Under the pieces are notes generated by a model that had not been told where the DNA came from, did not search any database, and saw only the letters and a program-made list of their open reading frames with translations. A program made the translations under genes and the position numbers. Of a stretch of 64,000 nucleotides of DNA, positions 10,571-58,434 are shown piece after piece. Source of the stretch: Balanoglossus misakiensis (taxonomy: Eukaryota > Animalia > Hemichordata); assembly GCA_040954595.2 (NCBI GenBank), contig CM082582.2:2216303-2280302 (forward strand), written 5' to 3'. Numbering within the stretch: the stretch's first letter is position 1; each line of letters starts with the position of its first letter.

Positions 10571-10800
10571 AGGGCCCAAGCGCTTGCTTGCGCTTGGGCC
10601 CTATTGGTTTCGTTGGGGTTTTTAGGGCCCAAGCCAAGCCAGGCTTGGGCCCTATTGGTTTCGTTGGAATTTTTCAGTCTTTCTTTCTTTCTTTAGGGCC
10701 CAAGCGCATACCAGCGCTTGGGCCCTATTGGTTTCGTTGGGGTTTTTAGGGCCCAAGCGCAAGCAAGCGCTTGGGCCCTATTGGTTTCGTTGGAATTTTT
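10571..10800 (+). repeat. Stack of four ~53-bp palindromic element heads
   Basis: Repeating unit ttagggcccaagc[variable loop]gcttgggccctattggtttcgttgg(gg/aa)tttt. Confidence 0.95.
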
Positions 10801-13800
10801 CTTTCCGGCTTTCTTTCTTTATTCTTGTGTCAATTCTTCGGCCAACTAAATCTCTGAAACTACTGCAGGTACACTGCTCAAACTTGCTACAGTGGTCAAG
10901 GTCTATGAGTAGATGTGCAGTGACTTGTGAATACTTAATTAGTCACGTGACCTGGCGGCCATATTGGATTTTCTGAAAAAATTGAAATCTCAGATCTCAG
11001 AAACTACAAGTCAGATCGACTTCAAATTTGGCATGCAGGTAGACTACCTTCTACCCATCATTTTTGTAATTGGAAATTTTGCTACAGTGTTGCAGTTTTT
11101 TTGCTACAATTTTTTTTCTGAAATCTGGCTTAAATTTCAAAAATCTTCTTCTCCAGAACCGGTGATAACCGAGACACGGGGTTTGGGGTATGTGGTCACC
11201 TCACTGATGTCTATCAAGTTTGCGAAGATCATTGTGATTGGTCGAAGATTATGGCGGCCATATTGGATTTTCGAAAAACCATAGTTAAACTCCAAAAATC
11301 TTCTTCTCCAGAACGGGCGATGACTGAGTCGCAAGATTCGGGGAGTATGGTCACTACACTGATGTCTATCAAGTTTGCAAAGAACATTGTGATTGGTCGA
11401 AGATTATGGCGGCCATATTGGATTTTGTAAAAAGCAGTGAAAAATTGAAATTCCTTTTTCTAGTCTAAAAATTGATAGCATACAAATTCTTTTTATGGAT
11501 ATCAATCTTTATGTGACTAAAATATGTTACAAATTTTTGTCGATTTTTCACATGACCTTTGACCTACTTTTCACACATTATTATTTCTGCATATCTATTT
11601 CCAGGCTAACCTATAGGGCTAGACATTTGGTTTTTGATGCATGTGGATTTGTGTGTGATCAAAATATTTTGCTACTTTCATGACCCCTTTGACCTCTGCT
11701 GACCTCATTAATTATGTGCATAGCTAATTACAGGCGAACCAATAGAGCTAGAGGTTTGGTTTTTGTTGGACATGAACCAATATGGGGTCAAAATTTGTTG
11801 CCCAAATATTGGGTGACCTCTGGTGACCTTTGACCTACTTTCGCATATCTCAGCATCCAGGGCAGATACAGCCTTGGCATTTGGCAGGATGGGACCAAAA
11901 TGTAAAGCCACATTTTTGAGTCACCTGTGACACCTGCTGACCTCATTAAATATGCACATACCTAATTACAGGCGAACCAATAGAACTAGAGTTTTAGTTT
12001 TTGTTGGACATGGAACAGTATGGGTCAATAAATTTTGCCCAAATGTTGGGTGACCTCAGGTGACCTTTGACCTACTTTACTCTATTTCAGCAGGAAAAAT
12101 ACATACGTCCTTGTTATGTCATGAGATAAAACACCTGATAGAGCATTCTGTTTCTTCTCATTCATACTGTGCATATATAATACCGGATCAGCGCTTGGGC
12201 CCAACAATGCTGCTTGCAGCTTTAATTAGGGCCCAAGCGCATACCAGCGCTTGGGCCCTATTGGTTTCGTTGGGGTTTTTCTGTCTTTCCTTCTTTCTTC
12301 TTTCTTCTTCTTTCTTTATTCTTGTGTCAATTCTTTGTCGCTCTAGATCTCAGACACCACTGCAGGTACACTTCTCAAACTTGCTACAGTGGTCAAGGTC
12401 AATGAGTAGATGTGCATTGAACCCTTGAATTTTTAATTAGTCACGTGACCTGGCGGCCATATTAGATTTTCTGAAAAAATGCAAATCTCAGATCTCAGAA
12501 ACTACAAGTCAGATCGACTTCAAACTTGGTGTGCAGGTAGTTTACCTTCTACCCATCATTTTTGTAATTGGATATTTTGCTGTCAATGTTGCAGTTTTTT
12601 TGCTACAGTTGTTTTTCTGAAATCTGGTCAAAATTTCAAAAATCTTCTTCTCCAGAACCGGCGATAACCGAGTCACGCGGTTTGGGGTATGTGGTCACCA
12701 AACTGAGGTCTATCAAGTTTGCGAAGATCATTGTGATTGGTCGAAGATTATGGCGGCCATATTGGATTTTCGAAAAACCCTAGTAAAATTTCAAAAATCT
12801 TCTTCTCAAGAACCGGCGATAACCGAGTCACAAGATTTGGTGTGTGTGGTCATTAAACAGATGTCTATCAAGTTTGCGAAGATCATTGTGATTGGTCGAA
12901 GATTTTGGCGGCCATATTGGATTTTGTGAACAACGATTAAAAAGTAAAAATTCTGTTTCTAGCCTAAAAATTGATAGCACAGAAATTCTTTTTATGGATA
13001 TGAATCATCATATGACAAGAATAAGCTATAAATATTTTGGTAATTTTGGCAATGACCTTTGACCTACTTTTGACGCATCATTTTTCTGCATATCTAATTC
13101 CAGGCTAACCAATAGGGCTATAAGTTTGGTTTTTGATGTATGTGGTTTTGTATGTGATCAAAAATTTTTGCTACTTTTCATGACCCCTTTGACCTCTGCT
13201 GACCTCATTAAATATGCGCATACCTAATTACAGATGAACCAAATGACCTAGAGGTTTGTTTTTTTCTGGACATGGATCAGTATGGGGTCAAAATATTTTG
13301 CCCAAATGTTGGATGACCTCGGGTGACCTTTGACCTACTTTTGCATATCTCGACATCCACAGCAGATACAGCCTTGGCGTTTGGAGGTATGGGGCCATAA
13401 TGAAAAGCCAAAGTTTTGGGTCACCTGTGACACCTGCTTAACTCATTATTTATGTGCATACCTAATTCCGGGCTAACCAAAAGGGCTAGAGGTCTGGTTT
13501 TTGTTGGACATGGACTACTTTGGGTCAAAATTTTCTGCCCAAATTTTGGGTGACCTCAGATGACCTTTGACCTATTTTTGCATATCTCGACATCCAAAGC
13601 AGGTACAGTCTGGGCATTTGGAGGTATGGTGCCATAATGAAAAGCCAAAGTTTTGGCTCACCTGTGACACCTGCTTTACGCATTATTTATGTGCATACCT
13701 AATTCCGGGCTAACCAAAAGGGCTAGAGGTCTGGTTTTTGATGGACATGGACCACTATGGGTCAAAATTTTCTGCCCAAATTGTGGGTGACCTCTGGATG

Positions 13801-16800
13801 ACCTTTGACCTACTTAACACTATATCAGCACCAAACATAGATATAACCTTGATATTTCATTTGCTAAAACACAGCATTATGTTTCTACTCATTAATTATG
13901 TGCATATCTAATAATCAGATCAGATAATAAAGCTTGGGCCCGGACAATGCTGCTTGCAGCTTTAATTCTTTCTTTCTTTCTTTCTTTCTTTATTCTTGTG
14001 TCAATTCTTTGTCGCTCTAGATCTCAGACACCGCTGCAGGTACACTTCTGAAACTTGCTACAGTGGTCAAGGTCAATGAGTAGTCGTGCATTGAACCCTT
14101 GAATTTTTAATTAGTCACGTGACCTGGCGGCCATATTGGATATTCTGAAAAAATGCAAATCTCAGATCTCAGAAACTACAAGTCAGATCGACTTCAAATT
14201 TGGTGTGCAGGTAGTTTACCTTCTACCCATCATTTTTGTAATTGGAAATTATGCTGTCAATGTTGCAGTTTTTTTGCTACAATTTTTTTTCTGAAATCTG
14301 GCTTAAATTTCAAAAATCTTCTTCTCCAGAACCGGTGATAACCGAGTCACGCGGTTTGGGGTATGTGGTCACCTAACTGATGTCTATCAAGTTTGCGAAG
14401 ATCATTGTGATTGGTTGAAGATTATGGCGGCCATATTGGATTTTCGAAAAACCCTAGTAAAATTTCAAAAATCTTCTTCTCAAGAACCGGCGATAACCGA
14501 GTCACAAGATTTGGTGTGTGTGGTCACTAAACAGATGTCTATCAAGTTTGCGAAGAGGAATGTGATTGGTCGAAGATTATGGCGGCCATATTGGATTTTG
14601 TGAAAAACGATTAAAAAGTAAAAATTCCCTTTCTAGCCTAAAAATTGATAGCACAGAAATTCTTTTTATGGATATGAATCATCATATGACAAGAATAAGC
14701 TATAAATATTTTGGTAATTTTGGCAATGACCTTTGACCTACTTTTGACGCATGATTTTTCTGCATATCTAATTCCAGGCTAACCAATAGGGCTATAAGTT
14801 TGGTTTTTGATGTATGTCGATTTGTATGTGATCCAAAAATTTTGCTACTTTTCATGACCCCTTTGACCTCTGCTGACCTCATTAAATATGTACATACCTA
14901 ATTACAGATGAACCAATAGACCTAGAGGTTTTGTTTTTGTTATACATGGACCAGTATGGGGTCAAAATATTTTGCCCAAATGTTGGGTGACCTCAGGTGA
15001 CCTTTGACCTACTTTTGCATATCTCGACATCCACAGCAGATACAGCCTTGGCGTTTGGAGGTATGGGGCCATAATGAAAAGCCAAAGTTTTGGGTCACCT
15101 GTGACACCTGCTTAACTCATTAATTATGTGCATACCTAATTATAGGCTAACCAAAAGGGCTAGAGGTCTGGTTTTTGTTGGACATGGACCACTATGGGTC
15201 AAAATTTTCTGCCCAAATTTTGGATGACCTCAGATGACCTTTGACCTACTTTTGCATATCTCGGCATCCAAAGCAGGTACAGCCTTGGCATTTGGAGGTA
15301 TGGGGCCATAATGAAAAGCCAAAGCCAAAGTTTTGGGTCACCTGTGACACCTGCTTTAGGCATTATTTATGTGCATACCTAATTCCAGGCTAACCAAAAG
15401 GGCTAGAGGTCTGGTTTTTGTTGGACATGGACCACTATGGGTTAAAATTTTCTGCCCAAATGTTGGGTGACCTCTGGGTGACCTTTGACCTACTTAACAC
15501 TTTATCAGCACCAAACATAGATATAACCTTGATATTTCATGGGATAGAACAGCATTATGTTTCTACTCATTAATTATGTGCATATCTAATATCAGATCAG
15601 ATAATAGAGCTTGGGCCCGGACAATGCTGCTTGCAGCTTTAATTCTTTCTTTCTTTCTTTATTCTTGTGTCATTCTTTGTCGCTCTAGATCTCAGACACC
15701 ACTGCAGATACAGTTCTCAAACTTGCTACAGTGGTCAAGGTCAATGAGTAGTCGTGCATTGAACCCATGAATTTTTAATTAGTCACATGACCTGGCGGCC
15801 ATATTGGATTTTCTGAAAAAATGCAAATCTCAGATCTCAGAAACTACAAGTCAGATCGACTTCAAATTTGGCGTGCAGGTAGACTACCTTCTGTCAATCA
15901 TTTTTGTAATTGGAAATTATGCTGACAAAGTTGCAGTTTTTTTGCTACAATTTTTTTTCTGAAATCTGGCTTAAATTTCAAAAATCTTCTTCTCCAGAAC
16001 CGGTGATAACCAAGACACGGGGTTTGGGGTATGTGGTCACCTAACTGATGTCTATCAAGTTTGCGAAGATCATTGTGATTGGTTGAAGATTATGGCGGCC
16101 ATATTGGATTTTCGAAAAACCCTAGTAAAATTGCAAAATTCTTCTTCTCAAGAACCGGCGATAACCGAGTCACAAGATTTGGTGTGTGTGGTCATTAATC
16201 AGATGTCTATCAAGTTTGCGAAGAGCATTGTGATTGGTCGAAGATTATGGCGGCCATATTGGATTTTGTGAAAAACGATTAAAAAGTAGAAATTCCCTTT
16301 CTAGCCTAAAAATTGATAGCACAGAAATTCTTTTTATGGATATGAATCATCATATGACAAGAATAAGCTATAAATATTTTGGTAATTTTGGCAATGACCT
16401 TTGACCTACTTTTGACGCATCATTTTTCTGCATATCTAATTCCAGGCTAACCAATATGGCTATAAGTTTGGTTTTTGATGTATGTGGATTTGTATGTGAT
16501 CAAAAAATTTTGCTACTTTTTGTGACCCCTTTGACCTCTGCTGACCTCATTAAATATGCACATACCTAATTAATGATGAACCGGTAGACCTAGAGGTTTT
16601 GTTTTTGTTATACATGGACCAGTATGGGGTCAAAATATTTTGCCCAAATGTTGGGTGACCTCGGGTGACCTTTGACCTACTTTTGCATATCTCGACATCC
16701 ACAGCAGATACAGCCTTGGCGTTTGGAGGTATGGGGCCATAATGAAAAGCCAAAGTTTTGGGTCACCTGTGACCCCTGCTCAACTCATTATTTATGTGCA

Positions 16801-18497
16801 TACCTAATTCTGTGCTAACCAAAAGGCCTAGAGGTCTGGTTTTTGTTGGACATGGACCACTATGGGTCAAAATTTTCTGCCCAAATTGTGGGTGACCTCT
16901 GGGTGACCTTTGACCTACTTAACACTATATCAGCACCAAACATAGATATAACCTTGATATTTCATGGGATAAACACAGCATTATGTTCCATCTCATTAAT
17001 TATGTGCATATCTAATATCAGATCAGATAATAAAGCTTGGGCCCGGACAATGCTGCTTGCAGCTTTAATTCTTTCTTTCTTTCTTTCTTTTTTCTTGTGT
17101 CAATTCTTCGGCCAACGAGATCTCTTAAACTACTGCAGGTACACTGCTCAAACTTGCTACAGTTGTCAAGGTCTATGAGTAGATGTGCAGTGACTTGTAA
17201 ATACTTAATTAGTCATGTGACCTGGCGGCCATATTGGATTTTCTGAAAAAATGCAAATCTCAGATCTCAGAAACTACTAGTCAGATCGACTTCAAATTTG
17301 GCATGCAGGTAGACTACCTTCTACCCATCATTTTTGTAATTGGAAATTTTGCTGTCAATGTTGCAGTTTTTTTGCTACAATTTTTTTTCTGAAATCTGGC
17401 TTAAATTTCAAAAATCTTCTTCTCCAGAACCGGTGATAACCGAGACACGGGGTTTGGGGTATGTGGTCACCTAACTGATGTCTAGCAAGTTTGAGAAGAT
17501 CATTGTGATTGGTCGAAGATTATGGCGGCCATATTGGATTTTCGAAAAACCATAGTTAAACTCCAAAAATCTTCTTCTCCAGAACGGGCGATGACTGAGT
17601 CGCAAGATTCGGGGAGTATGGTCACTACACTGATGTCTATCAAGTTTGCAAAGAGCATTGTGATTGGTCGAAGATTATGGCGGCCATATTGGATTTTGTC
17701 AAAAGCAGTGAAAAATTGAAATTCCTTTTTCTAGTCTAAAAATTGATAGCATACAAATTCTTTTTATGGATATCAATCGTCATGTGACTAAAATATGTTA
17801 GAATTTTTTGGCGATTTTTCACATGACCTTTGACCTACTTATCACGCGTTATTATTTCTGCATATCTAATTCCAGGCTAACCTGTAGGGCTAGACGTTTG
17901 GTTTTTGATGAATGTGGATTAGTGTGTGATCAAAATATTTTGCTACTTTACATGACCCCTTTGACCTCTGCTGACCTCATTAATTATGTGCATAGCTAAT
18001 TACAGGTGAACCAATAGAGCTAGAGGTTTGGTTTTTGTTGGACATGGACCAGTATGGGATCAAAACTTTTTGCCCAAATGTTGTGTGACCTCTGGTGACC
18101 TTTGACCTACTTTCGCATATCTCAGCATCCAGAGCAGATACAGCCATGGCATTTGGTAGGATGGGACCAAAATGTAAAGCCACATTTTTGGGTCACCTGT
18201 GACATCTGCTGACCTCATTAAATATGCACATACCTAATTACAGGCGAACCAATAGAGCTAGAGTTTTGGTTTTTGTTGGACGTGGACCAGTATGGGTAAA
18301 AAAAAATTGCCCAAATGTTGGGTGATCTCAGGTGACCTTTGACCTACTTCACCCTATTTCAGCAGCAAAAATACACACATCCTTGTTATGTCATGAGATA
18401 ATACATCCGATAGAAAATTCTGTTTCTTCTCATTCATACTGTGCATATATAATTCGAGATCAGCGCTTGGGCCCGACAATGCTGCTCGCAGCTTTAA
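10571..18497 (+). mobile_element. Cluster 1: five nested non-autonomous Helentron-like (HINE/DINE-1-type) elements
   Basis: Heads (agggcccaagc-loop-gcttgggccct) at 10571, 10624, 10695, 10748 and 12228. Tails (gcttgggccc...gctgct[t/c]gcagc-tttaa) end at 12225, 13965, 15642, 17068 and 18497. The cluster sits in a T-run of the LINE with only two extra T and no longer TSD. Confidence 0.8.
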
Positions 18498-18499
18498 TT

Positions 18500-18580
18500 T
18501 TAGTTCCAATTATTAAGGATAAAACTAAGCTTTGTAGTGATGCCAGTAACTACCGGCCGATAGCACTAGCAACTGTTTTT
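18500..18580 (+). mobile_element. Resumption of LINE ORF2 (RT N-terminal motif)
   Basis: LVPIIKDKTKLCSDASNYRPIALATVF joins in frame to AIKVI ending at 10570. NYRPI is the canonical LINE RT motif. Confidence 0.93.
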
Positions 18581-19934
18581 GAAATATCAAGGTTATATCT
18601 ATGTTTGGTGCTGATATAGTGTTAAGTAGGTCAAAGGTCACCCAGAGGTCACCCACAATTTGGGCAGAAAATTTTGACCCATAGTGGTCCATGTCCAACA
18701 AAAACCAGACCTCTAGGCCTTTTGGTTAGCACAGAATTAGGTATGCACATAAATAATGAGTTGAGCAGGGGTCACAGGTGACCCAAAACTTTGGCTTTTC
18801 ATTATGGCCCCATACCTCCAAACGCCAAGGCTGTATCTGCTGTGGATGTCGAGATATGCAAAAGTAGGTCAAAGGTCACCCGAGGTCACCCAACATTTGG
18901 GCAAAATATTTTGACCCCATACTGGTCCATGTATAACAAAAACAAAACCTCTAGGTCTACCGGTTCATCATTAATTAGGTATGTGCATATTTAATGAGGT
19001 CAGCAGAGGTCAAAGGGGTCACAAAAAGTAGCAAAATTTTTTGATCACATACAAATCCACATACATCAAAAACCAAACTTATAGCCATATTGGTTAGCCT
19101 GGAATTAGATATGCAGAAAAATGATGCGTCAAAAGTAGGTCAAAGGTCATTGCCAAAATTACCAAAATATTTATAGCTTATTCTTGTCATATGATGATTC
19201 ATATCCATAAAAAGAATTTCTGTGCTATCAATTTTTAGGCTAGAAAGGGAATTTCTACTTTTTAATCGTTTTTCACAAAATCCAATATGGCCGCCATAAT
19301 CTTCGACCAATCACAATGCTCTTCGCAAACTTGATAGACATCTGATTAATGACCACACACACCAAATCTTGTGACTCGGTTATCGCCGGTTCTTGAGAAG
19401 AAGAATTTTGCAATTTTACTAGGGTTTTTCGAAAATCCAATATGGCCGCCATAATCTTCAACCAATCACAATGATCTTCGCAAACTTGATAGACATCAGT
19501 TAGGTGACCACATACCCCAAACCCCGTGTCTTGGTTATCACCGGTTCTGGAGAAGAAGATTTTTGAAATTTAAGCCAGATTTCAGAAAAAAAATTGTAGC
19601 AAAAAAACTGCAACTTTGTCAGCATAATTTCCAATTACAAAAATGATTGACAGAAGGTAGTCTACCTGCACGCCAAATTTGAAGTCGATCTGACTTGTAG
19701 TTTCTGAGATCTGAGATTTGCATTTTTTCAGAAAATCCAATATGGCCGCCAGGTCATGTGACTAATTAAAAATTCATGGGTTCAATGCACGACTACTCAT
19801 TGACCTTGACCACTGTAGCAAGTTTGAGAACTGTATCTGCAGTGGTGTCTGAGATCTAGAGCGACAAAGAATGACACAAGAATAAAGAAAGAAAGAAAGA
19901 ATTAAAGCTGCAAGCAGCATTGTCCGGGCCCAAG
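18580..19934 (-). repeat. 1355-bp inverted duplicate of 15610-16964
   Basis: The ends map as reverse complements (coordinate sum 35544). The mirrored ORF translations are identical: 16083-16271(+) with 19273-19461(-), and 16550-16753(-) with 18791-18994(+). Confidence 0.95.
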
Positions 19935-19949
19935 TTTTTGAGCATATTT

Positions 19950-20400
19950 GGGGGCACAAGCGCCCTCAGGCGGCTTGTGCCCCCATTGTTATTGTTGGAA
20001 TTTTTCTTTATTAGGGCCCAAGCGCACGCAAGCGCTTGGGCCCTATTGGTTTTGTTGGAATTTTTAGGGCCCAAGCGCACGCAAGCGCTTGGGCCCTATT
20101 GGTTTCGTTGGAATTTTTTAGGGCCCAAGCGCAACAAGCAAGCGCTTGGGCCCTATTGGTTTCGTTGGAATTTTTCTTTCTTTCTTTAGGGCCCAAGCGC
20201 TTGCTTGCGCTTGGGCCCTATTGGTTTCGTTGGGGTTTTTAGGGCCCAAGCGCAAGCAAGCGCTTGGGCCCTATTGGTTTCGTTGGAATTTTTTAGGGCC
20301 CAAGCCCAGCAGGCTTGGGCCCTATTGGTATTACTGGGGTTTTTTAGGGCACAAGCCCCACAGGCTTGTGCCCTATTGGTATTGTTGGCTTTTTTCTTCT
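19950..20400 (+). repeat. Stack of eight heads from three subfamilies
   Basis: Divergent head gggggcacaagc...gcttgtgccccc at 19950; family A heads at 20013, 20066, 20120, 20188 and 20241; family B heads (followed by ggtatt) at 20295 and 20346. Confidence 0.95.
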
Positions 20401-23400: not shown

Positions 23401-23440
23401 ATGTTGGCTTGGGCCCGCCATTGCTGCTTGCAGCTATATT
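20295..23440 (+). mobile_element. Two nested family-B HINE-like elements
   Basis: Two B heads are followed by two B bodies with a (CTT)n linker, a distinct body sequence and tails ending gcagctatatt. Confidence 0.85.
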
Positions 23441-24874: not shown

Positions 24875-25140
24875 AGGGCCCAAGCGCATACCAGCGCTTG
24901 GGCCCTATTGGTTTCGTTGGAATTTTTAGGGCCCAAGCGCAAGCAAGCGCTTGGGCCCTATTGGTTTCGTCTGGGTTTTTCTGTCTTTAGGGCCCAAGCG
25001 CATACCAGCGCTTGGGCCCTATTGGTTTCGTTGGGGTTTTTCAGTCTTTCTTTCCTTCTTAGGGCCCAAGCGCAAGCAAGCGCTTGGGCCCTATTGGTTT
25101 CGTTGGGGTTTTTCTGTCTTTCCTTCTTTCTTCTTTCTTT
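24875..25140 (+). repeat. Stack of four heads
   Basis: Heads at 24875, 24928, 24989 and 25061; near-copy of the stack at 26555. Confidence 0.95.
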
Positions 25141-26554: not shown

Positions 26555-26925
26555 AGGGCCCAAGCGCATACCAGCGCTTGGGCCCTATTGGTTTCGTTGG
26601 AATTTTTAGGGCCCAAGCGCAAGCAAGCGCTTGGGCCCTATTGGTTTCGTTGGAATTTTTAGGGCCCAAGCGCACAGCAGCGCTTGGGCCCTATTGGTTT
26701 CGTCTGGGTTTTTCTGTCTTTAGGGCCCAAGCGCATACCAGCGCTTGGGCCCTATTGGTTTCGTTGGGGTTTTTCAGTCTTTCTTTCCTTCTTAGGGCCC
26801 AAGCGCAAGCAAGCGCTTGGGCCCTATTGGTTTCGTTGGGGTTTTTTAGGGCCCAAGCGCAAGCAAGCGCTTGGGCCCTATTGGTTTCGTTGGAATTTTT
26901 CTTTCTTTCTTTCTTTCTTTCTTTA
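26555..26925 (+). repeat. Stack of six heads
   Basis: Heads at 26555, 26608, 26661, 26722, 26794 and 26848. Confidence 0.95.
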
Positions 26926-44644: not shown

Positions 44645-45856
44645 AACTTCAAATTTGGCATGCAGGTAGATTACCTTCTGCCGATCATTTTTGTAATCGG
44701 AAATTATGCTGTAAAAGTTGCAGTTTTTTTGCTACAATTTTTTTCCTGAAATCTGGCTTAAATTTCAAAAATCTTCTTCTCCAGAACCAGTGATAACCGA
44801 GTCACGGGGTTTGGGGTATGTGGTCACCTAACTGATGTCTATCAAGTTTGCGAAGATCATTGTGATTGGTCGAAGATTATGGCGGCCATATTGGATTTTC
44901 AAAAAACCATAGTTAAACTCCAAAAATCTTCTTCTCGAGAACGGGCGATGACTGAGTCGCAAGATTCGGGATGTATGGTCACTACACTGATGTCTATCAA
45001 GTTTGCAAAGAGCATTGTGATTGGTCGAAGATTATGGCGGCCATATTGGATTTTGTAAAAAGCAGTGAAAAATTGAAATTCCTTTTTCTAGTCTAAAAAT
45101 TGATAGCATACAAATTCTTTTTATGGATATCAATCGTCATGTGACTTAAATATGGTACAATTTTTTGGCGATTTTTCACATGACCTTTGACCTACTTATC
45201 ACGCGTTATTATTTCTGCATATCTAATTCCAGGCTAACCTATAGGGCTAGACGTTTGGTTTTTGATGAATGTGGATTAGTGTGTGATCAAAATATTTTGC
45301 TACTTTTCATGACCCCTTTGACCTCTGCTGACCTCATTAATTATGTGCATAGCTAATTACAGGCGAACCAATAGAGCTAGAGGTTTGGTTTTTGTTGGAC
45401 ATGGACCAGTATGGGGTCAAAATTTTTTGCCCAAATATTGGGTGACCTCTGGTGACCTTTGACCTACTTTTGCATATCTCAGCATCCAGGGCAAATACAG
45501 CCTTGGCATTTGGCAGGATGAGACCAAAATGTAAAGCCACATTTTTGAGTCACCTGTGACACCTGCTGACCTCATTAAATATGCACATACCTAATTACAG
45601 ACGAACCAATAGAACTAGAGTTTTAGTTTTTGTTGGACATGGAACAGTATGGGTCAATAAATTTTGCCCAAATGTTGGGTGACCTCAGGTGACCTTTGAC
45701 CTACTTTACTCTATTTCAGCAGGAAAAATACATACGTCCTTGTTATGTCATGAGATAAAACACCTGATAGAGCATTCTGTTTCTTCTCATTCATACTGTG
45801 CATATATCATACTGGATCAGCGCTTGGGCCCGACAATGCTGCTTGCAGCTTTAATT

Positions 45857-46110
45857 AGGGCCCAAGCGCTTGCTTGCGCTTGGGCCCTATTGGTTTCGTT
45901 GGGGTTTTTAGGGCCCAAGCGCACGCAAGCGCTTGGGCCCTATTGGTTTCGTTGGAATTTTTAGGGCCCAAGCGCACGCAAGCGCTTGGGCCCTATTGGT
46001 TTCGTTGGAATTTTTCTTTCTTTCCGGCTTTCTTTACGGGCCCAAGCCAAGCCAGGCTTGGGCCCGTATTGGTTTCGTTGGAATTTTACTTTCTTTCTTT
46101 CTTTCTTTCT
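45857..46110 (+). repeat. Stack of four heads
   Basis: Heads at 45857, 45910, 45963 and 46036. The last is a variant, acgggcccaagc...gcttgggcccgt. Confidence 0.95.
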
Positions 46111-49100
46111 TTATTCTTGTGTCAATTCTTTGACCCACGAGATCTCAGACACCGCTGCAGGTACACTTCTGAAACTTGCTACAGTGGTCAAGGTCAATGA
46201 GTAGTCGTGCATTGAACCCTTGAATTTTTAATTAGTCACGTGACCTGGCAGCCATCTTGGATTTTCTAAAAAAATGCAAATCTCAGATCTCAGAAACTAC
46301 AAGTCAGATCGACTTCAAATTTGGCATGCTGGTAGACTACCTTCTGCCCATCATTTTTGTAATTGGAAATTATGCTGACAAAGTTGCAGTTTTTTGCTAC
46401 AATTTTTTTTCTGAAATCTGGCTTAAATTTCAAAAATCTTCTTCTCCAGAACCGGCAATAACCGAGACACAGGGTTTGGTGTATGTGGTCACCTACCTGA
46501 TGTCTATCAAGTTTGCGAAGATCATTGTGATTGGTCGAAGATTTTGGCGGCCATATTGGATTTTCGAAAAACCCTAGTAAAATTTCAAAAATCTTCTTCT
46601 CAAGAACCGGCAATAACTGAGTCACAAGATTTGGTGTGTGTGGTCATTAAACAGATGTCTATCAAGTTTGCTAAGAGGAATGTGATTGGTCGAAGATTAT
46701 GGCGGCCATATTGGAAGTTGTGAAAAACGATTAAAAAGTAAAAATTCCCTTTCTTGCCTAAAAATTGATAGCACAGAAATTCTTTTCAAGGATATGAATC
46801 ATCATATGACAAGAATAAGCTGTAAATATTTTGGTAATTTTGACAATGACCTTTGACCTACTTTTGACGCATCATTTTTCTGCATATCTAATTCCAGGCT
46901 AACCAATAGGGCTATAAGTTTGGTTTTTGATGTATGTGGATTTGTATGTGATCAAAAAAATTTGATACTTTTCATGACCCCTTTGACCTCTGCTGACCTC
47001 ATTAAATATGCACATACCTAATTACAGATGAACCAATAGACATAGAGATTTTGTTTTTGTTATACATGGACCAATATGGGGTCAAAATATTTTGCCCAAA
47101 TGTTGGGTGACCTCGGGTGACCTTTGACCTACTTTTGCATATCTTGACATCCACAGCAGATACAGCCTTGGCGTTTGGAGGTATGGGGCCATAATGAAAA
47201 GCCAAAGTTTTTGGTCACCTGTGACACCTGCTTAACTCATTATTTATGTGCATACCTAATTCCGGGCTAACCAAAAGGGCTAGAGATCTGGTTTTTGTTG
47301 GACTTGGACCACTATGGGTCAAAATTTTCTGCCCAAATTGTGGGTTACCTCTGGGTGACATTTGACCTACTTAACACTATATCAACACCAAACATAGATA
47401 TAAACTTGATATTTCATGGGATAAAACACAGCATTATCTTTCTACTCATTAATTATGTGCATATCTAATAATCAGATCAGATAATAGAGCTTGGGCCCGG
47501 ACAATGCTGCTTGCAGCTTTAATTCTTTCTTTATTCTTGTGTCAATTCTTTGGGCAACGAGATCTCAGACACCGCTGCAGGTACACTTCTCAAACTTGCT
47601 ACAGTGGTCAAGGTCAATGAGTAGATGTGCAGTGACTTGTGAATACTTAATTAGTCACGTGACCTGGCGGCCATATTGGATTTTCTGAAAAAAATCAAAT
47701 CTCAGATCTCAGAAACTACAAGTCAGATCGACTTCAAATTTGGCATGCAGGTAGACTACCTTCTACCCATCATTTTTGTAATTGGAAATTTTGCTGTCAA
47801 TGTTGCAGTTTTTTTGCTACAATTTTTTTTCTGAAATCTAGCTTAAATTTCAAAAATCTTCTTCTCCAGAACCGGTGATAAGCGAGACACAAGGTTTGGG
47901 GTATGTGGTCACCTAACTGATGTCTATCAAGTTTGCGAAGATCATTGTGATTGGTCGGAGATTATGGCGGCCATATTGGATTTTCGAAAAACCATAGTTA
48001 AACTCCAAAAATCTTCTTCTCCAGAACGGGCGATGACTGAGTCGCAAGATTCGGGGAGTATGGTCACTACACTGATGTCTATCAAGTTTGCAAAGAGCAT
48101 TGGTGATTGGTCGAAGATTATGGCGGCCATATTGGATTTTGTAAAAAGCAGTGAAAAATTAAAATTCCTTTTTCTAGTATAAAAATTGATAGCATACAAA
48201 TTCTTTTAATGGATATCATTCGTCATATGACTACAATATGTTACAAATTTTTGGCGATTTTTCACATGACCTTTGACCTACTTTTCACACATTATTATTT
48301 CTGCATATCTAATTCCAGGCTAACCTATAGGGCTAGACGTTTGGTTTTTGATGCATGTGGATTAGTGTGTGATCAAAATATTTTGCTACTTTTCATGACC
48401 CCTTTGACCTCTGCCGACCTCATTAATTATGTGCATAGCTAATTACAGGCGAACCAATACAGCTAGAGGTTTGGTTTTTGTTGAACATGGACCAGTATGG
48501 GGTCAAAATTTTTTGCCCAAATGTTGGGTGACCTCTGGTGACCTTTGACCTACTTTCGCATATCTCAACGTCCAGAGCAGATACAGCCTTGGCATTTGGC
48601 AGGATGGGACCTAAATGTAAAGCCAAATTTTTGGATCACCTGTGACACCTGCTGACCTCATTAAATATGCACATACCTAATTACACGCGAACCAATAGAG
48701 CTAGAGTTTTGGCTTTTGTTGGACATGGCCCAGCATGGGTCAAAAATTTTTGCCCAAATGTTGGTGATCTCAGGTGACCTTTGACCTACTTTACCCTATT
48801 TCAGCCGCAAAAATACACACGTCCTTGTTATGTCATGAGATAATGCACCCGATAGAAAATTCTGTTTCTTCTCATTCATACTGCGCATATATAATTCAAG
48901 ATCAGCGCTTGGGCCCGACAATGCTGCTCGCAGCTTTAATTCTTTCTTTCCGTCTTTCTTTATTCTTGTGTCAATTCTTTGGGCAACGAGATCTCAGACA
49001 CCGCTGCAGGTACACTTCTCAAACTTGCTACAGTGGTCAAGGTCAATGAGTAGATGTGCAGTGACTTGTGAATACTTAATTAGTCACGTGACCTGGCGGC

Positions 49101-52100
49101 CATATTGGATTTTCTGAAAAAATGCAAATCTCAGATCTCAGAAACTACAAGTCAGATCGACTTCAAATTTGGCATGCAGGTAGACTACCTTCTACCCATC
49201 ATTTTTGTAATTGGAAATTTTGCTGTCAATGTTGCAGTTTTTTTGCTACAATTTTTTTTCTGAAATCTGGCTTAAATTTCAAAAATCATCTTCTCCAGAA
49301 CCGGCGATAACCGAGACACGGGGTTTGGGGTATGTGGTCACCTAACTGATGTCTATCAAGTTTGCGAAGATCATTGTGATTGGTCGAAGATTATGGCGGC
49401 CATATTGGATTTTCGAAAAACCATAGTTAAACTCCAAAAATCTTCTTCTCCAGAACGGGCGATGACTGAGTCGCAAGATTCGGGGAGTATGGTCACTACA
49501 CTGATGTCTATCAAGTTTGCAAAGAGCATTGTGATTGGTCGAAGATTATGGCGGCCATATTGGATTTTGTAAAAAGCAGTGAAAAATTGAAATTCCTTTT
49601 TCTAGTCTAAAAATTGATAGCATACAAATTCTTTTGATGGATATCAATCGTCATGTGACTGAAATATGTTACAATTTTTTGGCGATTTTTCACATGACCT
49701 TTGACCTACTTATCAAGCGTTATTATTTCTGCATATCTAATTCCAGGCTAACCTATAGGGCTAGACGTTTGGTTTTTGATGAATGTGGATTAGTGTGTGA
49801 TCAAAATATTTTGCTACGTTTCATGACCCCTTTGACCTCTGCTGACCTCATTAATTATGTGCATAGCTAATTACAGGCGAACCGATAGAGCTAGAGGTTT
49901 GGTTTTTGTTGGACATGGACCAGTATGGGATCAACATTTTTTGCCCAAATGTTGGGTGACCTCTGGTGACCTTTGACCTACTTTCGCATATCTCAGCATC
50001 CAGAGCAGATACAGCCATGGCATTTTGGTAGGATGGGACCAAAATGTAAAGCCACATTTTTGGGTCACCTGTAACACCTGCTGACCTCATTAAATATGCA
50101 CATACCTAATTACAGGCGAACCGATTGAGCTAGAGTTTTGGTTTTTGTTGGACATGGACCAGTATGGGTAAAAAAAAATTGCCCAAATGTTGGGTGACCT
50201 CAGGTGACCTTTGACCTACTTCACCCTATTTCAGCAGCAAAAATACACACATCCTTGTTATGTCATGAGATAATACATTCGATAGAAAATTCTGTTTCTT
50301 CTTATTCATACTGTGCATATATAATTCAAGATCAGCGCTTGGGCCCGACAATGCTGCTCGCAGCTTTAATTCTTTCTTTCTTTCTTTTTTCTTGTGTCAA
50401 TTCTTCGGCCAACTAAATCTCAGAAACTACTGCAGGTACACTGCTCAAACTTGCTACAGTGGTCAAGGTCAATGAGTAGATGTGCAGTGACTTGTGAATA
50501 CGTAATTAGTCACGTGACCTGGCGGCCATATTGGATTTTCTGAAAAAATGCAAATCTCAGATCTCAGAAACTACAAGTCAGATCGACTTCAGATTTGGTG
50601 TGCTGGTAGTGTACCTTCTGCCCATCATTTTTGTAATTGGATATTTTGCTGTCAATGTTGCAGTTTTTTTGCTACAGTTGTTTTTCTGAAATCTGGTCAA
50701 AATTTCAAAAATCTTCTTCTCCAGAACCGGTGATAACCGAGACACGGGGTTTGGGGTATATGGTCACCTAACTGTTGTCTATCAAGTTTGCGAAGATCAT
50801 TGTGATTGGTCGAAGATTATGGCGGCCATATTGGATTTACGAAAAACCATAGTTAAACTCCAAAAATCTTCTTCTCCAGAACGGGCGATGACTGAGTTGC
50901 AAGATTCGGGGAGTATGGTCACTACACTGATGTCTATCAAGTTTGCAAAGAGCATTGTGATTGGTCGAAGATTATGGCGGCCATATTGGATTTTGTAAAA
51001 AGCAGTGAAAATTTGAAATTCCTTTTTCTAGTCTAAAATTTGATAGCATACAAATTATTTTTATGGATATCAATCGTCATGTGACTAAAATATGTTACAA
51101 TTTTTTTGCGATTTTTCACATGACCTTTGACCTACTTATCACGCGTTATTATTTCTGCATATCTAATTCCAGGCTAACCTATAGGGCTAGACGTTTGGTT
51201 TTTGATGAATGTGGATTAGTGTGTGATCAAAATATTTTGCTACTTTTCATGACCCCTTTGACCTCTGCTGACCTCATTAATTATGTGCATAGCTAATTAC
51301 AGGCGAACCAATAGAGCTAGGGGTTTGGTTTTTGTTGGACATGGACCAGTATAGGATCAAAATTTTTTCCCCAAATGTTGGGTGACCTCTGGTGACCTTT
51401 GACCTACTTTCGCATATCTCAGCATCCAGAGCAGATACAGCCATGGCATTTTGGTAGGATGGGACCAAAATGTAAAGCCACATTTTTGGGTCACCTGTAA
51501 CACCTGCTGACCTCATTAAATATGCACATACCTAATTACAGGCGAACCAATAGAGCTAGAGTTTTGGTTTTTGTTGGACATGGACCAGTATGGGTCAAAA
51601 AAAATGCCCAAATGTCGGATGACTTCAGGTGACCTTTGACCTACTTCACCCTATTTCAGCGGCAAAAATATACACATCCTTGTTATGTCATGAGATAATA
51701 CATCCGATAGAAAATTCTGTTTCTTCTCATTCATACTGTGCATATATAATTCAAGATCAGCGCTTGGGCCCGACAATGCTGCTCGCAGCTTTAATTAGGG
51801 CCCAAGCGCACGCAAGCGCTTGGGCCCTATTGGTTTCGTTGGAATTTTTCTTTCTTGCTTGCTTGCTTTCTTTCTTTCTTTAGGGCCCAAGCGCACGCAA
51901 GCGCTTGGGCCCTATTGGTTTCGTTGGAATTTTTCTTTCTTGCTTGCTTTCTTTCTTTCTTTCTTTCTTTATTCTTGTGTCAATTCTTCGGCCAACTAAA
52001 TCTCAGAAACTACTGCAGGTACACTGCTCAAACTTGCCACAGTGGTCAAGGTCAATGAGTAGATGTGCAGTGACTTGTAAATACTTAATTAGTCACGAGA

Positions 52101-54203
52101 CCTGGTGGCCATATTGGATTTTCTGAAAAAAATCAAATCTCAGATCTCAGAAACTACAAGTCAGATCGACTTCAAATTTGGCATGCAGGTAGACTACCTT
52201 CTACCCATCATTTTTGTAATTGGAAATTTTGCTGTCAATGTTGCAGTTTTTTTGCTACAATTTTTTTTCTGAAATCTGGCTTAAATTTCAAAAATCTTCT
52301 TCTCCAGAACCGGTGATAAGCGAGACACAAGGTTTGGGGTATGTGGTCACCTAACTGATGTCTATCAAGTTTGCGAAGATCATTGTGATTGGTCGGAGAT
52401 TATGGCGGCCATATTGGATTTTCGAAAAACCATAGTTAAACTCCAAAAATCTTCTTCTCCAGAACGGGCGATGACTGAGTCGCAAGATTCGGGGAGTATG
52501 GTCACTACACTGATGTCTATCAAGTTTGCAAAGAGCATTGTGATTGGTCGAAGATTATGGCGGCCATATTGGATTTTGTAAAAAGCAGTGAAAAATTAAA
52601 ATTCCTTTTTCTAGTATAAAAATTGATAGCATACAAATTCTTTTAATGGATATCATTCGTCATATGACAACAATATGTTACAAATTTTTGGCGATTTTTC
52701 ACATGACGTTTGACCTACTTTTCACACATTATTATTTCTGCATATCTAATTCCAGGCTAACCTATAGGGCTAGACGTTTGGTTTTTGATGCATGTGGATT
52801 AGTGTGTGATCAAAATATTTTGCTACTTTTCATGACCCCTTTGACCTCTGCCGACCTCATTAATTATGTGCATAGCTAATTACAGGCGAACCAATACAGC
52901 TAGAGGTTTGGTTTTTTTTGAACATGGACCAGTATGGGGTCAAAAATTTTTGCCCAAATGTTGGGTGACCTCTGGTGACCTTTGACCTACTTTCGCATAT
53001 CTCAACGTCCAGAGCAGATACAGCCTTGGCATTTGGCAGGATGGGACCTAAATGTAAAGCCAAATTTTTGGGTCACCTGTGACACCTGCTGACCTCATTA
53101 AATATGCACATACCTAATTACACGCGAACCAATAGAGCTAGAGTTTTGGCTTTTGTTGGACATGGCCCAGCATGGGTCAAAAATTTTTGCCCAAATGTTG
53201 GGTGATCTCAGGTGACCTTTGACCTACTTTACCCTATTTCAGCCGCAAAAATACACACGTCCTTGTTATGTCATGAGATAATACACCCGATAGAAACTGT
53301 TTCTTCTCATTCATACTGCGCATATATAATTCAGGATCAGCGCTTGGGCCCGACAATGCTGCTCGCAGCTTTAATTCTTTCTTTATTCTTGTGTCAATTC
53401 TTCGGCCAACTAAATCTCTGAAACTACTGCAGGTACACTGCTCAAACTTGCTATAGTGGTCAAGGTCTATGAGTAGATGTGCAGTGACTTGTGAATACTT
53501 AATTAGTCACGTGACCTGGCGGCCATATTGGATTTTCTGAAAAAATGCAAATCTCAGATCTCAGAAACTACAAGTCAGATCGACTTCAAATTTGGCATGC
53601 AGGTAGACTACCTTCTACCCATCATTTTTGTAATTGGATATTTTGCTGTAAATGTTGCAGTTTTTTTGCTACAATTTTTTTTCTGAAATCTGGCTTAAAT
53701 TTCAAAAATCTTCTTCTCCAGAACCGGTGATAACCGAGCCACGGGGTTTGGGGTATGTGGTCACCTAACTGATGTCTATCAAGTTTGCGAAGATCATTGT
53801 GATTGGTCGAAGATTATGGCGGCCATATTGGATTTTCGAAAAACCATAGTTAAACTCCAAAAATCTTCTTCTCCAAAACGGGCGATGACTGAGTCGCAAG
53901 ATTCGGGGAGTATGGTCACTACACTGATGTCTATCAAGTTTGCAAAGAGCATTGTGATTGGTCGAAGATTATGGCGGCCATATTGGATTTTGTAAAAAGC
54001 AGTGACAAATTCGCGGGTTCCGAGTTACCGAAACAGGCCACCTTGGCCGCGTGAGGGCGTATCAATGACGTCATTATAAGTACAAAGTGCATGATCTGAT
54101 GGGACCAAAATTCAAAATGGCGGCAGTGCGTGTGTGATCGATCGTGATCAATTCTGCTTGCAACTCCGTACTGGCATTATTTTGACAAAAAGACTTCCTG
54201 AAA

Positions 54204-54365
54204 ATGGTTAATTGGTTTTGTGCGGCTACGGACTGTACTATCAGCTTGCGCAATAAAAGAAACGCCGCAAAATACCCTGGATTGGCAGAGGTGACATTTC
54301 ATGCATTCCCAACTGAGAAACATCGCTGACTTCGGCAGCAGTGGATTTCCGTGTTACGTCGAAAG
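54204..54365 (+). pseudogene. THAP zinc-finger relic (transposase N-terminus)
   Basis: MVNWFCAATDC...(frameshift)...VTFHAFPTEKHR*LRQQWISVLRR has the THAP C-x-C, FP and W pattern. No DDE core was recognised downstream. Confidence 0.7.
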
Positions 54366-55085
54366 GATGCCCACTAGTCGCTTGGTGATTTTTGGAATAT
54401 CAATACTTTGTGTGTGTTTGCGGTGATTTTTTGTTTGTCTTTATTAATAATCTCAATATTGTGTGCGTGCTTGCCTTGAGCGTGTTTCTGGTAGTGAGGC
54501 GAGTTTCGAATTTGAGACTGATCTCATGGTTTCTGGTAGCGCCGCTACGTGTTCCCTACACATACGCGCTCACACTCGCTGACGTTTACTCCACACACAA
54601 AAAAGCAAAGCATTTATAATAGTTACATTTTTAGACATGTCATGAATTTTATTCAGCCAATAAAAATTTAACTGTGGCTGTACATGTGGTGTCTTTTTGA
54701 TTCAAATCTTAGTGCTTTTACAAGAGTTTCACACGTCACTCTACTAGAAGTACCATGAGTGATGACCCTCACTTTTTGTTTCACTTTTGACATTAAAGAG
54801 GGTGTGACTGCAGAGAAGTGTGAAATACAATATATCGTGTAAGGGAATATTGTATGTTAGTTGGTTAGAGAACTGGGGAACTTGGTTTCGGTTAGTAGGT
54901 TAGTTGGTTAATGCAAACATTCCTTGATTCCCTTACAACATATTTTTTATTTGTTGATCTCGCTACAGTCACAACCTCTTTGACATCATAAGTGAAACAA
55001 AAAGTGAGAATCACTTTTTCTCTAAAATAAAAGTAAACAATACTAAGCTATACCATGGTTATCCTTTTCACTATCAATCACAGTC

Positions 55086-56774
55086 CTATGTACAACTGAC
55101 AACAATGTTAAGTACAATAAAATCCTCATAAAATGTAGAAAGTTTAGCTTCAGTTGTTTTCCCAAACAATTCATCGAAATATATCCTCTCTATTGAAATG
55201 GCTTTTCTTGTGAATAACACAAAATCACACCATTGCAGTTTACAAGTAGCAAGTTGCATTTGTATTTGGGTATACCATTTTGATGTCCTCCTCAAACACA
55301 CTTTGCCATCTACATCCAAAAATACATGGTATTTGGGAACTCTAAGCTTGATATATCACATGGGAATATATTGCGGTGTTTGCTGGAACATTTGATTTCA
55401 CACATTTAAAGCTGGCAATGATAGTGATTTTACTAGCTATATTGGAGAATCTGTATCAGAAGCTGATATTGATTTTATGTCATCACTGACAGCTGATCAA
55501 AGCGATTATGAGGATTGGTATTTGTATAGACAAGGGAGCGTTACTGCCAGTATTGCACATGATATCGTTCACATGAAAGAAACTCAGGATTTGAATAACT
55601 ACATAGTCCAAAAAATTATGTCTGGCAGTCACAGGACAATACCTTCAACCCACATTGATTGTGGTATTACATGAACCTGTTGCTAAGCATTTATATCACG
55701 AGCAATACAAAAAGTTGCACCGGAAAGTGAAATTTCAAGATGTTGGCTTAGTCATCAGTTCTGACAAGTCATATCTTAGTTCAAGTCCTGATGGGAGGGT
55801 ATCATGCGAATGTTGTGGGACATCAAATGGCACCTGGATAATAGTTGGACATAGTTGGTCTTGGTGTGTCAGGTTCAGACTTATCCTTTCTAATGTCAAG
55901 CTCATCTATTTCCATAGGAGTGGACTCTTTGCGGGGTTTATCCCACTTACAGGGAACATCAGTACCAACTTGAATATTTCTGTCTTTGTGGCATCTATCG
56001 AAGTCGTTGATGCTAAACAACAATGCAACACAATGTTTGCATGTTCCATGCTCACTGTAAAAAAAATTCAGATACATGGTAAATGTTAACGCATGATTGC
56101 AGCATGATTTTGTTTATGCCTCTCTGTGACTGTCAAATGAAAACTGAGGTATTCAAACCTAAAACGTCAATGCATCAAATGGAGAATGAAATCATATTAA
56201 CTATTTTCAAACATTATCTAATTTTGCAAATCCTGATTTACAGTCCTCAACAGGACTTTAAATTAGTCAACAGATACTGTTGGAAAAACATAGACAATTC
56301 TGTCAGACTCTACTGACAGTTTTCTCATCGAAACACACAGATACAAAGCAAACCGAACTAAAAAACAAATGTCAAAATACATGTATAACCATGGTTATTT
56401 CAACCCACCATTTCTATGTACCTAGTCACACTGGTAGAACTAAAAGCCACGGTGGATTAAAATGATAAAATTTATATTAAAAAATACTTACGCAACACAA
56501 CTACAGCCTCAGAAGAGAATGGAGGTCGCTGACCCACTCGGTGATCGTCGCCTGATCAGGCAAAGTGATGTAGAATTGCTTTTGGCTGGGTCGCGATCGT
56601 CTGCTACCGTCCGCCTTTTTTGCTCGAAATTTCCTGGTCACCAGGCTCGAGTGGCCGAACGTCCAGTTCTATGGCTAACTCCACTACCTGAATTAGTCTA
56701 TCTTTCCTGGTATTACAGCAAGTTATACCTCTTTCCGACAAAAACTTTCTCAGGTCAGGAACTTATGTAAACAT
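55086..56774 (-). pseudogene. Spliced SAP-SWIM-YqaJ/lambda-exonuclease gene relic with an inverted internal segment
   Basis: Minus strand: SAP-like VPDLRKFLSERGI, GCSCVA plus GTAAGT donor (~56490), acceptor (~56056), GTCKHCVALLF (SWIM), then EIKC (~55399) and YTQIQMQLATCKLQWCDFV. The intervening W..R.G.VTAS and SSSPDGRVSCECCG motifs lie on the plus strand (~55403-55823). Confidence 0.8.
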
Positions 56775-58434
56775 GACCCCAGTCAGGACCGGAAGTCCAG
56801 TGGTCCCAACTCGCACGCCCTCAGGCGACAAGAGTCTATGAACTTTCTACTTTATTGAGAACTCGGAACCCGCGAATTGAAATTCCTTTTTCTAGTCTAA
56901 AAATTGATAGCATACAAATTCTTTTAATGGATATCAATCGTCATGTGACTAAAATATGTTACAATTTTTTGGCGATTTTTCACATGACCTTTGACCTACT
57001 TATCACGCGTTATTATTTCTGCATATCTAATTCCAGGCTAATCTATAAGGCTAGACGTTTGGTTTTTGATGAATGTGGATTAGTGTGTGATCAAAATATT
57101 TTGCTACTTTTCATGACCCCTTTGACCTCTGCTGACCTCATTAATTATGTGCATAGCTAATTACAGGCGAACCAATAGAGCTAGAGGTTTGGTTTTTGTT
57201 GGACATGGACCAGTATGGGATCAAAATTTTTGCCCAAATTTTGGGTGACCTCTGGTGACCTTTGACCTACTTTCGCATATCTCAGCATCCAGAGCAGATA
57301 CAGCCATGGCATTTGGCAGGATGGGACCAAAATGTAAAGCCACATTTTTGGGTCACCTGTGACACCTGCTGACCTCATTAAATATGCACATAGCTAATTA
57401 CAGGCGAACCAATAGAGCTACAGTTTTGGTTTTTGTTGGACATGGACCAGTATGGGTAAAAAAAAATTGCCCAAATGTTGGGTGACCTCAGGTGACCTTT
57501 GACCTACTTCACCCTATTTCAGCAGCAAAATACACACATCCTTGTTATGTCATGAGATAATACATACGATAGAAAATTATGTTTCTTCTCATTCATACTG
57601 TGCATATATAATTCAAGATCAGCGCTTGGGCCCGACAATGCTGCTCGCAGCTTTAATTATTAGGGCCCAAGCCCAGCAGGCTTGGGCCCTATTGGTATTA
57701 CTAGGGTTTTTTAGGGCCCAAGCCCAGCAGGCTTGGGCCCTATTGGTATTACTGGGGTTTTTCTTCTACTTCTTCTTCTTTTTCTTCTTCTGTCGTTTTC
57801 TTTGGCGAGGTAGATCTGGAAAACTGCTAAACCTAACAATTTCAAACTTGGCACAATGGTGCAGGCCAATGAGAGCTAGTGCAGTACCCTTGTGAATGTT
57901 AAATTAGTCACGTGACCTAATGACCATATATGGGCAAAATTTCCAAATCGGCCTTATTTGCATATGAATGGAGATATCAAAATTCTTTTAGCAACTTTTG
58001 CGGACCATGTGGTCAGTGTCCTACTTGCCAAATGTCAAGGCCATTGGCCATGCCAATTTTGAGAAGAAGATTTTTAAGTATTATTTTTCATATTTTTTTA
58101 CCAAGCCATGGGCCTATACTTTCCATAGTAAAGCTATGACCACATATTATTTTGGATAAATATGCATACATATCTCAAAATCTGTTAGGCCAATCATCTC
58201 CAACTTTGGTGTGCAGCTAGACTAGCATTTGTCAATAATTTTAAGCGAAAAAAAATAGTATGAAAAATCGACGGATTTTTTTATATTAATTTTTTTAATA
58301 AATTTATACCTTTACTTATACCTCTATGTCGATGTCTTATTGTGGAATTCTGGTCTGTGCAATAGTCCTGTACAGTGACTGTCTATTGGTCAGTGAGCAC
58401 AATGGCACCAAAATAAAAGGCACAATTTTAGGCT

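Follow-up and report, generated by a model that had tools for sequence, protein, structure and literature searches.

A nest of non-autonomous Helentron elements in the genome of the hemichordate Balanoglossus misakiensis

How does an array arise in which the short left ends of a repeat are piled up in stacks and its long bodies follow in headless runs? We address this question at a locus of Balanoglossus misakiensis (assembly GCA_040954595.2, contig CM082582.2, positions 2,216,303–2,280,302 of the forward strand), a stretch of 64,000 nt that is referred to here as the window. Self-alignment of the window reveals a 47 kb array of related 1.4–1.7 kb units that starts at 10.57 kb, and the region from 10.6 to 59.8 kb is a nest of non-autonomous Helentron elements of the HINE/DINE-1 type. 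A motif parse places 35 heads (left ends) and 28 tails (right ends) on the plus strand; a further tail, at 19906, is in minus orientation. With H for heads, T for tails and t for the minus-strand tail, their order is HHHHTHTTTT, t, HHHHHHHHTTTHHHHTHHHHHHTHTHTHTTHTTTTTTTTHHHHTTTTHHTTHH, and the running bracket depth stays at or above zero across the array. The stacks contain, in order, 4, 1, 8, 4, 6, 1, 1, 1, 1, 4, 2 and 2 heads (seven stacks and five singles), in agreement with an earlier reading made from the letters of the window alone (the sequence-only reading), which had listed stacks of 4, 8, 4, 6, 4, 2 and 2 plus singles.

The head is a 13–14 bp hairpin with a folding z-score of about −6 in the three heads folded (three of three); that of the intact element given as an example in the table has a 14 bp stem, made of a subterminal inverted repeat (subTIR) and an inverted repeat, and z = −6.15. 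Behind the hairpin come a 12 nt spacer, a run of five Ts and a (TCTT)n or (TTC)n linker, and the body that follows contains internal repeats of 155 nt or, in other copies, 237–239 nt (as detected by Tandem Repeats Finder, TRF). The subTIR reads GGGCCCAAGC(GC) in 35 heads and is found as its reverse complement in 28 tails. In all 28 tails this reverse subTIR is followed by a GCTGC-NN-GCAGC hairpin, which is weak in folding (z of 0.55–0.65), and then by exactly 5 nt, namely TTTAA in 26 and TATAT in two. TT precedes 35 of 35 heads and T follows 28 of 28 tails; if two Ts are counted as part of the element, all junctions of the two subfamily groups are explained with no need for a target duplication. 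Insertion at TT without duplication of the target site is seen at the empty site of the host retrotransposon described below and at internal empty sites. Coding capacity within the array is limited to short repeat-derived frames. The bodies sort into subfamilies A1, A2, B, C and D and several chimeras, and copies differ by 1–15% within subfamilies and by more between them. In the chimeric bodies at 25097–26552 and 33075–37315 the first and last 150 nt belong to different subfamilies, which points to recombination between copies.

Canonical Helitron1 elements have 5′-TC and CTRR-3′ ends and insert between A and T. Helentrons are copied by a rolling circle and do not duplicate their target site. 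A canonical Helitron1 was rejected because the ends observed here are TTAGGG or TTGGGG and TTTAA or TATAT. A CRISPR array or satellite DNA was likewise rejected, as the heads vary and the stereotyped linker halves behind them rejoin their own bodies. The HINE/DINE-1 anatomy with insertion at TT put forward in the sequence-only reading is retained, since the subTIRs, inverted repeat, microsatellite, central repeats, 3′ hairpin and junctions all agree with it, as does the definition of these elements (PMC4067079, PMC2374699; here and below, papers are cited from the portions of their text available to us).

The host of the array is a long interspersed nuclear element (LINE), a retrotransposon without long terminal repeats, whose endonuclease open reading frame (ORF; 8942–9538; Pfam Exo_endo_phos, E = 5.7e-09) is followed by the start of the reverse transcriptase (RT) region. 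Cluster 1 interrupts it with heads at 10571, 10624, 10695, 10748 and 12228 and tails ending at 12225, 13965, 15642, 17068 and 18497. Five heads are thus matched by five tails and the LINE frame is continuous from 10568 to 18498 across the cluster, both as claimed beforehand. Moreover, contigs from the same organism run from 10570 straight into the sequence that follows the fifth tail, that is, through an uninterrupted LINE site (one 202 nt loose end in run X1 and shorter ones in run X2); this site is probably from other LINE copies and is therefore a paralogous empty site. An inverted copy of cluster 1 sequence sits 80 nt past the cluster, with the loss of a few host bases, and is suggestive of insertion by templated repair or of an error in the assembly. 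Positions 19933–19947 are likely to be the final LINE bases ahead of cluster 2, which opens with a stack of eight heads of seven types (19950–20378). No continuation of the LINE was found to the right of cluster 2 by Pfam searches of 20 frames. Both clusters sit only about 100 host bases apart in one LINE (18498–19947), which suggests local targeting near an existing copy.

Pairing the brackets last in, first out (LIFO) and cutting out the inner elements yields 17 reconstituted nested elements. Removal of the inner elements restores intact outer elements, with nothing gained or lost: the five-T linker is regained in 16 of the 17, compared with its presence in 10 of the 11 intact elements. Reconstituted element 20241 matches intact element 26848 at 1484 of 1485 bases, and reconstituted 10695 matches intact 28357 at 1718 of 1728. 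Four excisions make the first 571 nt of element 26794 identical to those of 25061, after two excisions 26722 equals 34495 over 262 nt, and reconstituted 20295 equals 57713 over its first 82 nt. The regeneration of intact elements by iterative excision, which the sequence-only reading had proposed as a check, is therefore obtained with near-exact matches. The same rare head spacer is paired with the same rare body start in two independent stacks (10571 and 45857). For the 17 nested pairs, compared with shuffles of the headless bodies, head type predicts both the body start (p = 5e-05) and the tail class (p = 0.0018), and both classes agree in nine of the 14 nested elements that have a partner with the same head, where 2.4 would be expected.

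The positions at which copies land are equally restricted. Twenty-three of the 35 heads follow the linker of another head, 51–85 nt from the 5′ end of that copy, and at 14 of these 23 sites the insertion is in the first five-T run, at a fixed 51–54 nt. Among the remaining 12 heads, two follow a linker remnant behind a tail, eight come directly after a tail and two lie in the LINE. When the four duplicated heads are dropped, 31 placements counted as independent are left: 22 in the 15–50 nt linker behind a head, seven at tail–head junctions and two in the LINE. None is found in 39,067 nt of bodies, which hold 989 runs of at least four Ts or As. The earlier claim that every copy lands some 50–80 bp inside another one, in its T-run or (TCTT)n, is thus right as to the position but not as to ‘every’, given the tail–head (7/31) and LINE (2/31) placements. 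The tail–head junctions fit insertion at the TT behind a tail or, where neighbours share a subfamily, concatemers.

We consider it probable that the copies inserted at TT in the 15–50-base T-rich linker of earlier copies, most likely one by one and by a Helentron Rep/helicase (RepHel)-endonuclease that would favour this linker. Each new copy would insert at TT in the linker behind the resident head hairpin and would bring with it a fresh linker and, after its tail, a fresh TT. The locus would in this way feed itself, with heads accumulating on its left side and, in the opposite order, bodies on its right. The linker may be favoured as an easily unwound pyrimidine tract beside a strong hairpin bound by the transposase. 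Unequal crossover between the tandem 1.4 kb bodies would then duplicate, delete and shuffle them, and the nest would drift towards a satellite. As to the choice of target, we lean slightly towards a role for the head; a choice determined by sequence alone seems to us a less convincing, if possible, alternative.

Several observations weigh against stepwise insertion into linkers as a full account. Cluster 2 is unbalanced, with 30 heads against 23 tails and seven heads left unclosed, and its six strict pairs in the middle of the cluster are no better than chance (p = 0.45). The balanced parentheses of the sequence-only reading therefore hold for cluster 1 (5/5) and for the stack at 45857 and fail for cluster 2, and its last-in-first-out record stands for the 17 nested pairs (p ≤ 0.002) without extending to those six. 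A head–body score based on summed similarity is significant overall (p = 0.001), yet it ranks the LIFO partner first for only two of the 17 heads, and the LIFO order does not come top in cluster 1 (7.98, compared with 8.19 for the best) or in the 45857 stack (8.01, compared with 8.06). This score is crude and has no intact references for some head types, and the class and exact-prefix tests given above were used instead; the class test itself puts LIFO level with one other order for cluster 1, where two B-type bodies cannot be ordered. The chance of finding 22 of 22 placements in linkers is 3e-27 if any TT can serve as target and 1e-06 if an 8 nt pyrimidine context is needed, but the placements are not fully independent and these values are only guides. 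The bodies hold only one pyrimidine run of at least 12 nt; being almost devoid of long pyrimidine tracts, they leave the window unable to separate a microsatellite preference from proximity to the head. Finally, runs X1 and X2 represent one sample, perhaps that of the assembly itself.

Part of the imbalance of cluster 2 can be traced. The duplicated stack listed in the table likely results from unequal crossover: positions 23977–24970 are repeated exactly at 25657–26650, and 25135–25631 at 33075–33571, so that a stack was copied and two bodies fused, with a gain of four heads and one tail. The duplicate keeps the linker of 26794 in its empty state, which means that the four insertions arrived with no substitution in 571 nt since. 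When both duplications are removed, six heads are still open and the maximum depth is 11. Either all six are closed further right, beyond the end of the cluster, or three of them have been deprived of their bodies or were brought in as a multi-head composite; both parses are grammatical, and the second is favoured by the good fit of heads 20066 and 20120 to bodies 40157 and 38732. The order in the middle of cluster 2 has probably been blurred by later duplications and a deletion. At the right end, the last element (57713) has no tail and its repeats decay by 59.8 kb; we predict that the missing tails lie beyond 64 kb.

Table 1. Features of the window (positions in nt; +, forward strand; −, reverse strand)
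Positions	Strand	Feature	Evidence
8601..10568	+	Host LINE, degenerate	Interrupted at 10568/10569
10569..18497	+	Cluster 1: five nested elements, depth 4	Motif parse, pairing tests
10746..12225	+	Example of an intact element	TT, head hairpin, linker, 1.4 kb body, subTIR, tail hairpin, 5 nt end
18498..18579	+	LINE resumes: N-terminal region of RT with NYRPIAL-type motif	In-frame join
18580..19934	−	Exact copy of 15610–16964 in inverted orientation within the LINE, comprising one tail and the greater part of a body	1355 nt without a mismatch
19933..19947	+	Likely final 15 nt of LINE sequence ahead of cluster 2	Frame stays open when a gap of 3 or 6 nt is filled with N
19948..59830	+	Cluster 2: 30 heads, 23 tails, right end open	Motif parse
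20239..24872	+	Three-level nest 20241 > 20295 > 20346, three subfamilies	Reconstitution matches
24873..26552	+	Duplicated stack: four heads and one chimeric body	Exact repeats
26792..34492	+	Element 26794, its linker holding four insertions (26848, 28357, 30087, 31592)	Excision match to 25061
38822..44644	+	Two headless bodies duplicated in exact tandem, with a period of 2849	2974 nt exact match
45855..51794	+	Balanced four-level nest (45857, 45910, 45963, 46036)	Bracket parse, pairing
54012..56874	+	Unrelated DNA transposon of the cut-and-paste type within a body	AATT at either flank of perfect terminal inverted repeats
57660..59830	+	Two heads of type C, then a long tailless body whose 216–239 nt repeats decay	Motif parse, TRF
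62865..64000	−	Helentron Rep/helicase/endonuclease ORF, C-terminal 377 amino acids, open to the window edge	Pfam Exo_endo_phos, E = 3.1e-11

We may wonder whether the head matters at all, since plain microsatellite targeting, in which TT in any pyrimidine or (TTTC)n tract would serve, the head would be irrelevant and self-insertion a by-product, is a possible explanation to which we give limited credence. A lepidopteran relative reportedly disrupts (GAAA)n, the same repeat. The linker is the only long pyrimidine tract of the element, HINEs are described as favouring T-rich sites (PMC4067079) and Helitron2 inserts between TTTT and T or C (PMC5148889). However, the 14 sites in the first five-T run lie at one fixed distance, neither host site is a microsatellite, the four pyrimidine runs of at least 15 nt in the unique flanks are empty (a small number), and relatives with a (TTA)n linker stack at the same place. 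It is unlikely that the stacks were partly imported ready-made, the stretch from an outer head to the first tail having been copied as a composite with several heads per body. Such mobilization would explain the surplus heads 26555, 26608 and 26661, since the T count and type of heads 20066 and 20120 are a good match to bodies 40157 and 38732, and dispersed copies with multiple 5′ ends have been proposed and seen in Fusarium (PMC5148889). It nevertheless presupposes self-insertion and cannot yield the 17 headless bodies; moreover, cluster 1 and the 45857 stack are balanced, and the breakpoints of the stack at 24875 are those of unequal crossover.

Three further explanations would dispense with repeated insertion or with the array itself. 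Very little speaks for heads duplicated by slippage and bodies by unequal crossover, as in a satellite: although exact tandem duplications exist, and although the 24875 stack lacks one 53 nt head unit that the 26555 stack has, which shows that slippage-type loss occurs as a minor process, heads next to each other are identical in only two of 23 pairs, which is the rate found among all pairs (50/595). For none of the 30 stacked heads is a neighbour the only best match, and for eight it is one of several best matches, so that slippage, which the sequence-only reading had proposed to recognize by the likeness of neighbouring heads, is rejected on this ground; the mirror pairing of head and body types, the exact reconstitutions and the clean LINE join refute it as the main cause. 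Rolling-circle concatemers, or integration of circles by single crossover, are a scarcely more probable origin of the array. The eight tail–TT–head junctions are those expected of a circle and chimeric bodies exist, but concatemers give head–body–tail repeats and never the head–head (23 cases) or tail–headless-body (17 cases) joints by which the locus had from the start been set apart from simple head-to-tail arrays, and several tail–head neighbours come from different subfamilies (10748 and 12228). Concatemers are thus refuted as the sole cause but may explain some of the eight junctions, for example in the one-subfamily series 28357–30087–31592. An assembly artefact, finally, is the least credible explanation. 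It could account for the two exact repeats alone (2974 nt in tandem and 1355 nt inverted), whereas copies otherwise differ by 1–15% within subfamilies, the junction grammar is exact, and contigs carry the same junction types and the empty site.

Stepwise insertion into linkers may extend beyond the locus. Contigs of the same organism contain joints that are absent from the window, with a depth of 10375 for tail–head, 1931 for tail–headless-body and 1255 for linker–head joints, and some long contigs have a depth near 30–40. Contig depth is not copy number, and these values only suggest that nested joints are present at many loci. Heads with unrelated flanks also exist in these contigs. The contigs do not span stacks, as no listed piece has 31 nt on both sides of a linker–head junction. 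In metagenome contigs the exact head pattern gave no match; a relaxed pattern gave 36 loci, of which four are element-like heads and 32 are chance or unrelated matches, as judged by eye. Two of these loci, on unrelated contigs of other organisms, follow the same grammar with a (TTA)n linker. One (L035, 15–110) has two different heads stacked via (TTA)n, and the other (L036, 1090–2514) shows a tail, (TTA)n, a headless body, a tail, TT and a head; the tail hairpin and the TTTAA end are those of the Balanoglossus elements. Their source is presumably an animal, fish-like. We tentatively suggest that a Helentron lineage widespread in animals has its own left end as its target: its transposase would dock on the head hairpin and insert at the first TT 15–50 nt downstream, whatever the microsatellite (TCTT or TTA), and the head would form a portable landing pad that shelters copies from selection, records the order of their insertion and seeds 1.4 kb satellites. 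The enzyme may be the RepHel-endonuclease encoded at the right edge of the window.

This ORF comprises the end of a helicase and an Exo_endo_phos domain, the endonuclease being C-terminal to a PIF1 helicase as in Helentrons, and its Rep part lies beyond the window. It is 53–58% identical to hemichordate and mollusc RepHel-endonuclease proteins, the best being hemichordate (55–58%), and its best relatives carry PF14214, PF05970, PF03372 and PF20209; RepHel relatives match the window only at 62868–63998. The ORF is located 5 kb to the right of the last, tailless head and 3 kb past 59.8 kb, in the opposite orientation to the heads. The ORF of Helentron-Da-40, the autonomous partner of one DINE-1, is likewise in minus orientation (PMC4067079). 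Between 59.5 and 62.9 kb no terminus of the Helentron type was detected. This ORF may be the autonomous partner of the heads and is a candidate for that role. An imperfect palindrome of about 170 nt (62570–62741) lies just downstream of its stop codon. Further left, a 961 nt element (60914–61874) has 34 nt terminal inverted repeats and transposase-like remnants without a Pfam hit; by eye, we take it to be Tigger/pogo-like. The 2.9 kb transposon at 54012–56874, the sole insertion within any body, holds a 250 nt foldback at 54763–55013; judged by eye, its start resembles THAP and it retains a nuclease-like remnant, neither of them with a Pfam hit. To the left of the LINE, exon-like frames on the minus strand (7003–8286) give weak COR-A/COR-B matches, a piece of a Roco-family gene.

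Insertion into earlier copies builds nested clusters in DIRS-1 of Dictyostelium and Zepp of Chlorella, which are retrotransposons with enzymes unrelated to that of Helentrons. The closest elements in anatomy are DINE-1/HINE (Yang and Barbash, 2008, PMC2374699; Thomas et al., 2014, PMC4067079; the oyster Cg_HINE, PMC7492417), which share subTIRs, a 5′ inverted repeat, a microsatellite, central repeats, a 3′ stem-loop, the lack of an ORF and insertion at TT without duplication. They differ in that the number of terminal Ts is fixed in the Balanoglossus elements (two at the head), and in that T-rich targets and clustering, but not repeated insertion into their own microsatellite, are reported in the text available; the term ‘nested’ is absent from the main text of PMC2374699 and PMC7492417. 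In Fusarium FoHeli (Helitron2), repeated 5′ ends of 31, 65, 73 and 85 nt, comparable to the 51–85 nt found here, have been attributed to self-insertion near the 5′ end (Chellapan et al., 2016, PMC5148889). There, as far as the accessible text goes, it is a hypothesis drawn from copies with many heads and a single tail and from one nested case, whereas the Balanoglossus locus has complete nests with matching headless bodies, exact reconstitution, several subfamilies that share one site, and a depth of four closed and 8–11 open. HelenXT233 of Xenopus carries two non-identical left terminal sequences in direct repeat, each marking a subfamily (HELIANO, PMC11417382); it has two heads only, presented as a structure, with no self-targeting interpretation in the portion consulted. 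The rice miniature inverted-repeat transposable elements Castaway and Gaijin are also non-autonomous and insert frequently into themselves by independent events (PMC5172404), but they move by cut-and-paste with target duplications and form shallow multimers without a head-adjacent linker. The available text of four other papers (PMC7492417, PMC13085455, PMC3789558 and PMC12628747) mentions T-rich targets, nesting as an explanation or Helitron pieces in other elements, and no fixed self-target. We found no description of deep, position-specific Helentron nests, in a search that left most subscription papers, Repbase and supplements outside. The view that such nesting is undescribed therefore needs qualification, as self-insertion with multiple short 5′ termini had been proposed for the Fusarium Helitron2, and applies to this depth and precision of site.

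The target choice of Helentrons has been known only as ‘TT in T-rich DNA’, and the locus shows a far narrower hotspot that is carried by the element itself. Its natural empty-site controls make the contributions of the linker sequence and the head hairpin testable, and if the enzyme is guided by the head it would be a candidate tool for site-specific integration. Repeat annotators will misread such loci as satellites. The locus gives a concrete picture of how dispersed rolling-circle elements could turn into satellite-like arrays, and its nesting order supplies relative ages of the subfamilies. Self-nesting also explains the multi-headed elements of fungi and frogs.

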